NCBI GenBank assembly: GCA_964016885.1
Contig: OZ024743.1
Location: 289,230,001 to 289,294,000 of the forward strand
Direction of reading: 5' to 3'
DNA: 64,000 bases
Source: Eledone cirrhosa
Lineage: Eukaryota
Part shown: in pieces, positions 2,817-51,610 of the stretch
Position numbering within the stretch: the stretch's first letter is position 1
Layout: each line of letters starts with the position of its first letter
The notes under the pieces: generated by a model
Told to the model about the DNA's origin: nothing
What the model saw: the letters and a program-made list of their open reading frames with translations, nothing else
Databases searched by the model: none
Made by a program: the position numbers and the translations under genes

Positions 2817-3270
2817 ATTATTTTACTGTAACTTTCATTTCAAGCCTCCTGCCAGCAAATTCAACCTCATGTTATCAAACTTTCTCTCCCTATCTCTATC
2901 TCTCTCTCCCACTCTCTCACACTCTCCGACTCATTTTCTATTAGTCCACATCGTCATCCCTTTTTACATCCCAACATCATCTCTTTTCTCTTCCTCATTT
3001 CACACTAAGGCATATTTACTCTCTTCAACATCTTTATATCTTTCTCTAACTCTCTTTACTGTTCACACACACACGCATATATATATATATATATATATAG
3101 TGGAAAATGGAACGGGAACAAAACAGAGAGGCAGTACGAACAAAGGTTTATTAGTTTCACGCTCTTGAGAGGAAAGGAGTCGACGAAGACATTGGCTATA
3201 TATGAATATATATATATATATATATATATATATATATATATATATATATATATATATATATATATATATA

Positions 3271-3806
3271 CATAATACTGTACGTCTTTATACATATATG
3301 TATGTACGTGTACATACTTATATTTAAGTAACAGCCGTACTAAGAGTGGGAAATGAAATTTCGTTTCATTTTTTCCGTTTATCGTTTTCCGTGCACTCTG
3401 CCGATTAACCCACTCGATATGCAAATTGGGCTGCTCAGCCGTTAATATGCATAAGGTAAGTATATACGTTCAACAATTTGGCAGGAAGGTATACGTTGCT
3501 GACGATAGCTAATAAGCTTGAAACTAGTACAGCGTTCCTTTGTCAGTGTTGAACAAATGAGCAACGATGGTTGCTGGACACTACGGCTTAATACGGGATG
3601 TTTGTTTACAAACACACCGAGCATTAAAATAAATGTTCGGTGAATCCATACGTACATATATATATGTGTGCATGTATGTATATATATATATATACATACT
3701 ACTGTACGTCTGCATACATATATGTATGTACGTGTACATACTTATATTTAAGTAACAGCCGTACTAAGAATGGGAAATGAAATTTCGTTTCATTTTTTCC
3801 GTTTAT
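3271..3806 (+). mobile_element. Terminally redundant non-coding HHR element (retrozyme/PLE pLTR-like), 424-bp period
   Basis: 112-bp direct repeats at 3271-3382 and 3695-3806 (about 4 mismatches), internal hammerhead, (TA)n on both sides. Confidence 0.7.
3493..3535 (+). ncRNA. Minimal type-I hammerhead ribozyme
   Basis: acgttg-CTGACGA-t-agct(aata)agct-t-GAAA-ctag-TA-cagcgt: stem I, intact core, stem II, palindromic CUAG in place of stem III. Predicted cleavage after 3529. Confidence 0.85.
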
Positions 3807-4727
3807 ATATATAGCCAATATATAGCCAATATATATATATATTCATATATAGCCAATGTCTTCGACGACTCCTTATATATATATATATATATATATGAAT
3901 ATATAGCCAATGTCTTCGTCGATCTCCTTTCTTCTATCTCTCATCCACTCTTTCTTAAATATTTACCTTCTCAGTGGTGCCCTTTTTTCTTCTCAAACTC
4001 TTTTTCTTTCCTACCCACACCGTCTCTCACTCTACTTTCCTTTTCTCTCCCTATTATTTTTATCTGCTTTTCCCATAATAAAACGGAACAGCGATATAAC
4101 GTTTATATACATATATTACACATGTTAATTCAATTATGGAATTATAAACACACACTCACACACGCACACACGCACACACACACGCACACATATATTCTTA
4201 CATACCTACATATCTACATAGATAACGACATGCATGCATGCACAAGAACACAGTCAGATATATACATATATATTTATATATATATATATATATATACAAT
4301 ATATATACAATATATACAATATATATGTATGTATATATATATATATATATATACAATATATATAGAATATATACAATATATATGTATGTATATATATATA
4401 TATATATGTATATAAACATACATATATATATTACATATATATATTATATATATACATATATATGTATATATATATATATATATACACATATATATATATA
4501 ATACATATATATATATACGTATATATATGTATATATATGTATATATATATATATATACATACACACACACATATATATGCCTATGTGTGTGTATATGCAT
4601 GTGAATTTTTACATGTGTGGATATGTGTGTGTATATATGTGTTGTGTGCATGTTTATATATTGTATATATTGGATACACACTCGAAAATTCGTATGAGCT
4701 GATCTATATGAATATGTGTATAAATAA

Positions 4728-5246
4728 ATATTGTTATACTTTGGGAGGGTCATGTTGCCAATAAGAAACACACGCACCAGTTGCTTTCACTTCAATTTAT
4801 TATATATTTATAAATTTATAAATTTATAAATTTCTGGTTGGTTGGTTGGTTCCACAACCAGATAGTTGTTTATATATAGTCATAGTTCTTTCGTCACACA
4901 CTCTGTGACCTCTTCAGTGACTGGGGATTCCTTTCTTTGTTTCTGTGCCTCTCCTTTGTTCCGTCCTACGCCATTTTGTTTCTGACACACAGAAACAAAA
5001 TGGCGTAGGACAGAACAAAGGAGAGGCACAGAAACAAAGAAAGGAATCCCCAGTCACTGAAGAGGTCACAGAGTGTGTGACGAAAGAACTATGACTATAT
5101 ATAAACAACTATCTGGTTGTGGAACCAACCAACCAACCAGATATTTATAAATTTATAAATTTATAAATATATAATAAATTGAAGTGAAAGCAACTGGTGC
5201 GTGTGTTTCTTATTGGCAACATGACCCTCCCAAAGTATAACAATAT
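4728..5246. repeat. 519-bp near-perfect palindrome (fold-back non-coding retroelement)
   Basis: 4728-4984 is the reverse complement of 4990-5246 with very few mismatches; 5-nt loop acaca at 4985-4989. Confidence 0.95.
5052..5096 (+). ncRNA. Minimal type-I hammerhead ribozyme (mirror copy on - strand at 4878-4922)
   Basis: agtca-CTGAAGA-g-gtcaca(gagtg)tgtgac-GAAA-gaac-TA-tgact. Predicted cleavage after 5091. Confidence 0.8.
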
Positions 5247-48570: not shown

Positions 48571-48606
48571 CCCCAGTTGATGGATGTGGATCCGAAATAA
48601 ATAGGG
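48571..48606 (+). ncRNA. Hammerhead-like motif of the PLE pLTR with variant core (mirror at 46291-46326, -)
   Basis: ccc-CAGTTGA-t-ggat(gtgg)atcc-GAAA-taaa-TA-ggg; the left arm has GAAA-tata-TA-ggg. Confidence 0.6.
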
Positions 48607-50548
48607 ACAATTAAATCTCTCCCAAGGTAACTCTCTCTCGTGTTGTTATTTTTTATTTTATCTTTATACTCTTTCCTTCATTCTTCTACACGTCTTATAC
48701 ACACCACGCATCTCAACGTACACCCACTTACATCTCTCTCTCCACCACCGGATCTTGTTACCCGGAGATTTACCCATTTGCATTGTCGAGGCTTCCAAAC
48801 GACTTAAAGATATTTACTTATTATTCCACAATGCTTCAAGCAAACTTCAATACTCTCATATATATACATATATATATATATATATATATATATATATGTG
48901 TGTGTGTGTGTGTGTGTGTGTGTGTGTGTGTGTGTGTGTGTGTGTGTGTGTGTGTGTGTGTGTATATCATATTTGTGTGCGTGGGCGTACGTAGATAAAG
49001 GGAATTGACTGATGATTTACTTCATTTTAACTCGGAGTTCAGCTTACCTATCCCAGGATTCAGGCTTCACCTGATGCCTTCTTCCTTCAATCAAACGCAT
49101 CTGGGAGGCAGGATAAAGATCAAATTGATTGCCTATTATTTTCTGTCTAAAATTTTAAAAGTGCTTTACTCTCTCCCAATATACTTTAAGTTTAAAATCT
49201 ATTTTACCAATATCGTCGATGCCCATCTCAAAATGCTGCTTGTTTTTATCGGCTATATCTCTTCCTCATAAATTAATATAAAGGTTTTTTTTTTACATTT
49301 TTGTCCGGGTTGTAAAGACAGCGCCTATGCCATTTTCCAAACTATTCAGAGACTGGTGGGAAGGAGAGATATGGATATCATCAAACTATAAACTCCCCTA
49401 AAATCACCCAAGAATAATCTGGTGTTGTTAAATCGGGTTACAGTTTAAGTCTACCACCCAAGTAGTCTTTCAGGTGATTTGAACTGACAAAAGAACAAAT
49501 ACAGCAAGTCATCTCGTCTGACGCTCTAATAATTCTGAAAATTTGTCGTCCTAGACTACTACTTTATTTTGTCACATCTTAAGCGATAAAAGGCAAAAAT
49601 GACCTCTGAGAAATTTGAAATCAAGCTTTTTGTCTGACACTCTAACGACTAGCAGCAACATTCCCATTAAATTACAAATTAGCTTCTTAATAAAGAGTGG
49701 CACATACGGTAATTTAGACCAAGAATATTGAGATGGGTGCATAAGAAACATCTTTAAATCATAGGCCTGCTCGGTCAGTGTTGATATTTTGTTGAATAAT
49801 AACAAATATATTTCTTATGACGGCTCAGTGATGGAATGGACACGAGAGTGATAAGTTAACTTTCGGCAAACCAAGAACGTGATCAGCATATGATTGTCCA
49901 TTGAATCTATATACAATAATTTTGTTGTCTCTCGTAATACTTGAATGTTAATCAACGTCGTTTTAACTATCCCTCATCTGATATATTTGGCAAATCATAT
50001 TTTATGCCAAAATTCTCGATTGTTTTTATACCTGCTACCAAAGAAAGATGACTAGTACAGCAGGAACAGCAGCAACAAAAACAACAACAACAACCACTAC
50101 TACTACTACTACTACTACTGCTGCTGCTGCTACTACTACTACTACTACTACTACTACTATTACTACTACTACTACTACTACTACTACTACTAGTGAAATG
50201 TCACCATGAAAGGGAATATGAAAGGTAGTAGGCGTATCATTGATATTTTTTCTGCAACAACGTACCATTCTCTCATAGGGACTAAAGAATATTATTGCAT
50301 CGTAACACTGTATAAACAGTAATCCCGGGGAGAGAATATTTTTGTAAAAATATGAATTTATAATGCAAGATTCTGAGATTTATGTAAATAGATATATAAT
50401 ATAACATTATATATATTTATATTAATAACAGTAGGAGATAGACCGGGAGTTCGGCAGTCTCAGCTAGTTACTAATATATATATATATATATATATATATA
50501 TATATATATATATATATATATATATATATATATATATATATATATATG

Positions 50549-51610
50549 AAGAATGAATAATAACAGGTAGACATCATAAAAAGGTAATTTATTCCGTGTG
50601 CTTACAAATGTTTCCACGGTGGTAATACAGCCTAGTTATGCTTTGTACAAAGTGCATATCGGAGTGGATTGAAGTACTGTAGGTTATGTAACCTTGAACT
50701 CTTTTACATATTAAAATCCCAAAATAAACTACTTAACGATAGAATCGAACGATCATTATACTGCAACCACAAACTAAAAGCTAAATTCTCTCACTATAAA
50801 ATAATTTAACATTCGAACCCGTAACTATAACATCGCTTTCTAGCTAACCACCTCTCTTCCCCCACACTACAAGACAATACCCTGCTTATCACTATAAATG
50901 GTAACTCAGTGCAATTCGCAGATTACTACTACGAACCCAAAGTTCACCCACCTCATAGCTTTCGTCTGTCCCCTCTCTATCTCTCCCTCTATATCCATTC
51001 CACTCTCTCTCTCTCTCACCTTTGGCCTACCTCCCTCCCTCTCCACATCTATGAACCTGCCCTCTGGGGCAATAAATAATTCCAACCTTGACTATCAACG
51101 CATCTCTCTAAAAGTAACCAGTATAATAAAACCCCTACCATAACATTTTGATTAAGATATCTACAAACCACTCTCTCCTATTTCTCCAACCCCTGCATAT
51201 ATTTCTCTCTCTCTCCCTTTCCCCTACTTTTCTCTCTTCCTTTTCTACTCTATCTTCTCCAATAACCTCACTTAAGGGTATTTACATTGTACATTTTATC
51301 ATTCTGCTCTGATGATACAGTGGTCACAGCATTTGATATTTGAGTTCTGCAAATAGTTGTAAATTTGTACAAAGCATAACTAGGCTGTATTACCACCGTG
51401 GAAACATTTGTAAGCACACGGAATAAATTACCTTTTTATGATGTCTACCTGTTATTATTCATTCTTTATCTACACTCCGGAATACAGAACGATCAGGAAC
51501 TAAGTTTCTTCAACAATTCTTCCATAACTCGTTGAGTAACCTCTCACCGTACGTCAACCATATCCAGTGTAGTAATTAACCATTACTGCATCTAGGATAA
51601 TCCTATACCT
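50549..51610 (+). mobile_element. PLE-derived element with inverted 5' end, between TA tracts
   Basis: 50549-50651 is a perfect 103-bp reverse complement of 51364-51466; degenerate coding-like body; HHR in the 3' region. Confidence 0.85.
51305..51416 (+). ncRNA. Type-I hammerhead with extended stem/loop II
   Basis: tgct-CTGATGA-tacagtggtcacagc...gctgtattaccaccgtg-GAAA-catttg-TA-agca. Confidence 0.65.

Follow-up and report, generated by a model that had tools for sequence, protein, structure and literature searches.

We analyzed a 64,000-nucleotide window of the Eledone cirrhosa genome (G000:C4:289230001-289294000, contig OZ024743.1, within a 3.0-Gb assembly), a microsatellite-rich stretch that contains a series of short, mostly palindromic inserts with the ends of Penelope-like elements (PLEs). 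These inserts belong to families that we label F1 (insert at 4730), F2 (19967, 22184 and 11858), F3 (25705), F4 (46076), F5 (50549) and F0 (3271), the last located at the start of the range covered by a preliminary description of this DNA and absent from its list of inserts. That description attributed the inserts to non-autonomous, ribozyme-bearing RNAs from five unrelated families, copied by fold-back synthesis. We observe instead that every family has two fixed 3′ ends, a short end (S) and a long end (L, i.e., S plus a tail), located 40-145 nt apart, and that copies lying head to head nearly always combine one L end with one S end. The tail is 60 nt in F1, 79 nt in F2, 40 nt in F3, 41 nt in F4, 145 nt in F5 and 56 nt in F0, and for F1-F5 it accounts for the earlier observation that one arm of each insert runs longer than the other.

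Self-comparison of the window recovered inverted duplications at 4715-5259 (96.5% identity), 20044-20146, 22261-22421 and 25974-26285, and inverted arm pairs at 46011-46932/47995-48925 and 50543-50651/51364-51472. The shared inverted architecture is therefore present as described, with one exception: the second arm of the 25705 insert ends approximately 260 nt before the family end, and so does not duplicate its 3′ end. Genome sequence searches also bore out the recurrence across families, in that F1-F5 are mutually unrelated at the DNA level and all multi-copy, with first-look candidates numbering at least 130, 3058, 2045, 2617 and 3146, all lower bounds.

The F1 insert is bracketed by an 11-bp target-site duplication on the plus strand (left copy 4718-4728, right copy 5305-5315), and consists of an S arm on the minus strand (4730-4984), a fragment of a PLE pseudo-long terminal repeat (pLTR) with a minimal hammerhead at 4878-4922, and an L arm on the plus strand (4990-5304), with a hammerhead at 5052-5096 and the 60-nt tail at 5245-5304. 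A solo F1 fragment with an S end (38643-38802, plus strand) is flanked by TA tracts and lies beside a reverse transcriptase (RT) fragment resembling those of long interspersed elements (LINEs). Family F2 is represented by a solo copy with an L end and no hairpin (11858-11996, plus strand), and by a head-to-head pair without a hammerhead (19967-20146), in which an L arm on the minus strand, with its 79-nt tail, meets an S arm on the plus strand at a junction with 4 nt of microhomology. A related pair from a sister subfamily (22184-22421) carries at its centre a copy of approximately 32 nt of flanking sequence; this filler, at 22328-22359, matches the minus strand about 250 nt away (about 22607-22638), pointing to templated end-joining, and we rejected its CUGAUGA-like letters as a hammerhead core because they belong to this copied flank. 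The F3 insert (25703-26285) derives from a non-coding family of 670-780-nt tandem units, and has an S arm on the minus strand, with a CUGAUGA half-core at 25720-25726, and an arm in the opposite orientation (26131-26285) that stops before the family end. In F4, the main arm (46076-47998, minus strand) is a 5′-truncated coding PLE with its 3′ region and an S end at a (TA)n tract; it encodes an RT with a YVDD motif (47089-47907), a Cys linker and a GIY-YIG domain (46762-47085), all on the minus strand, the frame being broken by in-frame stop codons at 47910 and 47088 and, near its end, by a frameshift. The inverted F4 arm (47995-48857, plus strand) lacks a hammerhead, and its 41-nt tail (48817-48857) holds the probable start of the open reading frame (ORF). 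The F5 insert comprises an S arm (50549-50651, minus strand) and an L arm (50652-51611, plus strand), the latter containing the last codons of the endonuclease (EN) frame, the pLTR, the S site at 51466 and the 145-nt tail, together with a type-I hammerhead with a helix-II region of ~85 nt (51305-51416, plus strand; cut predicted after 51412). Finally, F0 (3271-3804, plus strand) consists of ~1.3 copies of a retrozyme-type non-coding unit of ~420 nt, repeated head to tail, with an L 3′ end adjoining (TA)n and a complete type-I hammerhead at 3493-3535 (plus strand) that has a 6-bp helix I, a palindromic loop 3 and a predicted cut after 3529.

Judged by their sequences, the F1, F2, F4 and F5 inserts are 5′-truncated copies of coding PLEs. 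The F4 insert matches both Pfam RVT_1 and GIY-YIG, and among the 150 best-scored genomic matches we identified F4 relatives with open frames of 923 and 881 amino acids (loci L287 and L288), each with both domains, so that F4 has the single ORF, with an RT followed by a C-terminal GIY-YIG domain, of an EN-containing (EN+) PLE. A partial tandem is present at L288, and inverted 5′-truncated copies are present at L287 and L290. We also observed, as a single case, a full-length F4 complementary DNA (cDNA) that halts almost precisely where the upstream unit has its S site (L287:4598). Longer F1 copies (L009 and L014) encode an RT with YVDD, a Zn linker and a GIY-YIG-like domain, longer F5 copies contain the EN frame whose last codons are present in the window, and longer, older F2 copies (L206, L210, L188 and L209) contain a decayed RT/EN frame ~1.3 kb upstream; the F2 and F5 frames are partial, decayed or truncated and were assigned via alignment alone, in which the ENs of all four families share the Cys linker and a Y-x-G...R core. 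Among named proteins, an RT-domain protein of Octopus vulgaris is the best relative of that encoded by F1 (65% identity), while for F5 no homologue was found at E≤0.001 among longer proteins, which is weak evidence, and a PDB search with the RT returned just weak matches to group II intron-type and DRT3 RTs (E 0.05-0.2). By analogy with the Cys linker described in the available text of PMC8557442, these PLEs would be of the Neptune/Nematis type. Penelope-like families, 31 of them recently active, have been annotated in Octopus vulgaris (accessible part of PMC13282606); PLEs are thus a known system, and the present families may be uncatalogued or already on record in Repbase or Dfam. The PLE RT/GIY-YIG machinery invoked in the preliminary description is consequently encoded by one of the inserts themselves, and its depiction of non-autonomous parasites applies to F3 and to the 3271 unit, as passengers; four of the five families it listed are truncated coding PLEs, which is largely the outcome it had named as telling against it.

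The pairing of the two 3′ ends was counted among the top-scoring copies of each family. Among head-to-head pairs, we counted 14 L+S and 1 S+S in F1, 27 L+S, 1 S+S and 2 unclassifiable in F2 (leaving out the 25 loci that had been chosen by a hairpin query), and 6 L+S and 1 L+L in F4 (the window's own pair, S+L, being removed as a duplicate), i.e., 47 of 50 pairs. In F0, all 12 classifiable pairs were L+S, with one further pair unclassifiable and two skipped at a locus edge. Pooling these four families gives 59 of 62 pairs (P=9e-15 against 50%), or 32 of 34 without F2 (P=3e-8). Unpaired ends are 68 L, 64 S and 1 other in F1, F2 and F4, and 8 L to 13 S in F0. We kept F5 (10 of 10 L+S) and F3 (4 of 5) out of the pool, since the F5 query contained the L end and the tandem units of F3 run on. 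The window F4 pair and the longer units at L287 and L290 are all S+L. Neither arm consistently reaches further 5′: across 34 L+S pairs the S arm extends further in 11, the L arm in 16, and the two are equal in 7, with the L arm longer in 9 of 10 F5 pairs. Junctions lie within 15 nt of flush in 29 of 34 pairs, and some contain microhomology or filler DNA. A head-to-head partner is present at 9-12 of the 25 top loci per family, a lower bound in which some loci overlap, so that the inverted form is common yet not found at most loci and not the “usual outcome” previously proposed.

Both arms of a pair come from the same subfamily, clearly in F1, F3 and F5 and weakly in F4 and F2. At family-polymorphic sites, F1 arms differ at 15 of 218 positions, compared to 38% between random copies, F5 arms at 4 of 51 (29%) and F3 arms at 5 of 47 (26%). 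An origin of the two arms from different subfamily RNAs is not supported by these shared alleles. We found no imprint of adenosine-to-inosine (A-to-I)-edited templates: rare variants on the sense strand, un-normalised for base counts, number 122 A>G versus 139 T>C.

Against a background of 9-10%, 3′ ends adjoin (TA)n in 45 of 47 cases for F1, 79 of 89 for F2, 18 of 22 for F4, 21 of 23 for F5 and 12 of 22 for F3, in which tandem units run on. This enrichment agrees with the targets previously proposed, although not every insert lies in or next to a TA-rich repeat, as the 4730 insert is in an AT-rich site outside any (TA)n tract. Target duplications of 9-19 bp bracket the whole unit at 7 of 111 pair flanks, including that at 4718-4728/5305-5315; most of the remaining flanks, without a readable duplication, are pure TA and uninformative. 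The flanks outside the pairs are unmirrored (6-10 of 40 letters match), and the arms have diverged by 1.4-2.4%, or by 10% in F2; because of these two features, we conclude that the inserts are not fold-backs of reads or assembly. The F5 short end followed by (AT)n is present in raw reads of three of three read runs and in the contigs of one contig run, all from public restriction-site-associated DNA sequencing (RAD-seq) and contigs that possibly represent another individual or species. Next to no reads cover the window F5 junction at 50651, which they neither confirm nor refute. A search of sequencing runs with F5 listed none of RNA.

A strict type-I scan of the window returned four hammerhead hits (F0, both F1 arms and F5), compared to 0.01 per shuffle over 100 shuffles, and the only inserts with complete hammerheads are those at 4730, 50549 and 3271. 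The F1 hammerhead has an extra nucleotide before helix II, F3 has only the first half-core (CUGAUGA), and F4 merely contains a GAAAC..GUC-like string antisense to its ORF. With a type-I descriptor that tolerates one core mismatch, we found no motif on the plus or the minus strand of F2 or F4, although more degenerate or other ribozymes may lie beyond that descriptor. The claim that every insert carries at least half a hammerhead is hence not confirmed, and “ribozyme-bearing” as a common trait is true of two of the five families. There was no Rfam match at the gathering score in the window or at seven loci, and we dismissed the 150 matches listed by an E-value scan of the window as chance hairpins below that score. 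We likewise rejected the F2 turning point as a hammerhead cut site, since the family runs more than 1.5 kb upstream into the EN frame without a hammerhead. The S arm of F5 extends beyond the predicted cleavage position in 9 of 10 pairs, and therefore the template was uncleaved RNA; because of this read-through, and because two abundant families have no detectable motif, hammerhead cleavage is unneeded. Separately, the minus strand of another old family at 12007-12927 has, near 12216-12250, a motif resembling a hammerhead in which GATAC takes the place of GAAAC, a form also present in 4 of 6 other copies checked; in a genome search, the 100-nt inverted arms of this family had no match besides one another. 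The flanks of loci L001-L260 (624 kb, overlapping loci included) contain 40 distinct complete type-I hammerhead strings from many further families, and therefore many more such PLE ends exist in the genome.

The two non-coding families also have PLE-type ends. F0 forms arrays of up to ~7 units (L216, L221 and L232) of its ~420-nt non-coding tandem repeat with an intact hammerhead, and on sequence grounds it appears to fit the definition of a non-LTR (long terminal repeat) retrozyme, i.e., 150-450-nt non-coding tandem repeats with a type-I hammerhead per unit (available text of PMC7229834). F3 occurs as head-to-tail tandems of its 670-780-nt unit, and when we looked for a coding helper by way of a relative of F3, we obtained another non-coding tandem unit, of 527 nt, instead. 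Across these 527-780-nt units CUGANGA is conserved and no GAAA box is in register; they lack a complete hammerhead per unit, and we do not file F3 as a retrozyme, but as a family that seems to work like a non-autonomous PLE passenger. Both F0 and F3 likely ride on PLEs. As a side observation, F3-type units (window 25706-25835, minus strand; L053, L063, L168, L185, L056 and L094) can be modelled as a four-helix fold around CUGANGA that would resemble a circularly permuted hammerhead without the GAAA box. In this hand-drawn structure both partners are substituted in 5 of 21 pairs, and 92% of cells pair compared to 25-48% when slid, which is weak support drawn from approximately three independent subfamilies.

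Taken together, we consider it somewhat better than an even proposition that the inserts represent several canonical PLE families, plus two non-coding tandem families, and that the mirror shape arises when both cut strands of the target prime their own cDNA. Priming from both target strands at two RT start sites fits the pair data. An RT-EN dimer would make staggered nicks in the two strands of an AT-rich target; one of its subunits would begin at the distal RT start site, including the tail, and the other at the proximal site, with either a single RNA or two sister RNAs as template; each cDNA would end prematurely, giving 5′ truncation, and the inner ends of the two would be joined by end-joining repair. 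In twin priming by the L1 element, two target-strand primers on one RNA lead to an inversion and the cDNAs cover different parts of the RNA, whereas here both cDNAs would copy the same 3′ region, producing a palindrome. We hold as evenly balanced the stronger proposal that PLEs integrate by a twin reaction of obligatory asymmetry, in which the dimer gives the distal start to one strand and the proximal start to the other, a single event yields the tail, the inversion and the target duplication, and the same machine integrates retrozyme arrays. The purified PLE protein PAc (available text of PMC11167929) introduces nicks in both strands and extends them, initiates RT at two sites that flank the tail, has a predicted dimeric form and works without hammerhead cleavage. 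A coupled two-start-site model was not found stated in the literature that we searched, and it may already be on record elsewhere.

Several observations weigh against this two-strand reading. Three of the pooled pairs are L+L or S+S, and a first count of F3 gave 3 of 7 pairs as L+L. Allele sharing is weak in F4 (8 of 33 compared to 40%) and F2 (82 of 507 compared to 27%), and shared alleles could stem from later gene conversion. The copies are top-scoring matches only, 25-30 loci per search, and so a non-random sample. Pfam scored the EN domain of F4 only, those of F1, F2 and F5 having an alignment basis, and neither F0 nor F3 has an identified helper element. In bulk, PAc had no strand difference in start site (available text of PMC11167929), and L+S pairs would also result if the endonuclease cut a preformed hairpin at staggered positions, following the reading of the tail in PMC8557442, as far as its text is available.

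This last point belongs to the alternative that survives best, which we nevertheless regard as rather unlikely, in which the palindrome is made first by self-priming (e.g., on an antisense transcript) and the EN then cuts it at two staggered positions, so that only one end retains the tail. A hairpin intermediate has been proposed for rotifer PLEs (accessible part of PMC3846280), and the tail read as its EN-mediated resolution (accessible part of PMC8557442); it too predicts L+S pairing and same-subfamily arms, and a recurrent F2 junction at a 4-nt inverted repeat could snap back. However, in vitro tail ends map to RT start sites (available text of PMC11167929), solo copies finish at the same two sites, junctions are often unmirrored, with arm lengths differing by up to kilobases (L287 and L290), and some junctions hold copied flank DNA. 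We consider it improbable that, as the preliminary description proposed, non-autonomous ribozyme RNAs give a first cDNA that folds back and copies itself. The non-coding tandem units of F0 and F3 with PLE-type ends, the intact F0 hammerhead and the longer L arm of F5, alone compatible with snap-back, are in its favor, but four of five families have coding parents, turning points lie off hammerhead cut sites, and snap-back has no reason to halt exactly at the S site beside (TA)n. In addition, snap-back copying fails for the 11 of 34 pairs in which the tail is on the shorter arm, since the longer arm offers no tail as a template. Fold-back is thus largely refuted for F1, F2, F4 and F5, and F0 and F3 obey the same L+S rule. 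It is scarcely credible that two separate elements inserted back to back into a single TA tract, or that the pairs are fold-back artefacts of assembly, since, even with tracts that gather different families, most junctions have no TA spacer, L+S coupling, shared subfamily alleles and duplications around the whole unit speak against independent events, and unmirrored flanks and diverged arms against artefacts.

Much of this anatomy is already in print for PLEs, i.e., inverted 5′-truncated copies, a one-ended tail, microsatellite bias, minimal hammerheads, half-core motifs and non-autonomous derivatives (PMC8557442, PMC3846280, PMC4209133 and bioRxiv 10.64898/2026.07.22.740005, in their accessible parts). 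As in the canonical EN+ PLEs described there (Neptune/Nematis type; PMC8557442, PMC3846280), we find a single RT-EN frame, a Cys linker, a pLTR and partial tandems, an inverted 5′-truncated copy at the 5′ end with an often one-ended tail, a microsatellite or (TA)n bias with target duplications around the whole unit, and, in F4, a tail that overlaps the ORF start. The families differ from them in tails of up to 145 nt, compared to 30-40 bp (PMC8557442, PMC3846280), in the lack of a detectable type-I hammerhead in F2 and F4, compared to canonical hammerheads described as ‘universal’ in C-terminal EN+ PLEs (PMC8557442), and in the one-L-one-S rule, counted here in six families. The F1 hammerhead corresponds to the minimal PLE pLTR hammerheads in the available text of PMC4209133, with a short helix I, a longer helix II, an extra nucleotide before helix II and a rudimentary helix III, whereas F5 differs by its ~85-nt helix-II region, starting U-G, and F3 by its half-core. 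F0 resembles metazoan non-LTR retrozymes (available text of PMC7229834 and bioRxiv 10.64898/2026.07.22.740005) in its ~420-nt non-coding tandems, one type-I hammerhead per unit, low GC content and dispersed arrays, but its arrays bear a PLE integration signature (two 3′ ends, L+S pairs and (TA)n), for which a word search of the accessible text of the same two sources found no passage. The Poseidon PAc system is alike in its two tail-bracketing RT starts, nicking and extension of both strands, AT-rich targets and a dispensable hammerhead, and differs in that inverted insertions and start-site coupling are unaddressed in the available text of that study (PMC11167929).

The additions to known PLE biology are therefore the counted pairing rule, a retrozyme array with PLE scars and two abundant PLE families with no detectable hammerhead. 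The origin of PLE tandem and inverted insertions is named as an open question in the accessible part of PMC8557442, and the pairing rule makes a sharp prediction that is open to the existing in vitro PAc assay. If the asymmetric twin reaction is correct, animal retrozymes would be tied to PLE enzymes through their insertion scars. For annotation, short palindromes between TA tracts in this genome resemble miniature inverted-repeat transposable elements (MITEs) or microRNA hairpins yet are PLE ends. Any effect on host double-stranded RNA or RNA editing is speculation.

The window and the sampled loci contain further repeats. At some loci (e.g., L077, L089 and L109), members of several different families adjoin one another within a TA tract. 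Short inverted arms at 3168-3238 and 3804-3935 face each other across the TA tract of F0 as a separate element, and a 73-nt inverted pair (20328-20400 and 24478-24549; 4.1 kb apart, 90% alike) surrounds the 22184 insert. A MITE-like element of 67 nt with terminal inverted repeats (24155-24221) lies between TA tracts, and near-perfect palindromes of TA/TG-rich sequence are located at 38863-38986 and 38959-39307. LINE-like RT fragments are present at 38046-38555 (a sub-threshold RVT_1 match), 17414-17824 and 34646-35302. An abundant dispersed family resembling short interspersed elements has copies at 2724-2823, 7183-7367, 21434-21773, 42862-43049 and 44454-44683, and again at 57246-57534, 58353-58714, 59474-59661 and 61271-61383.

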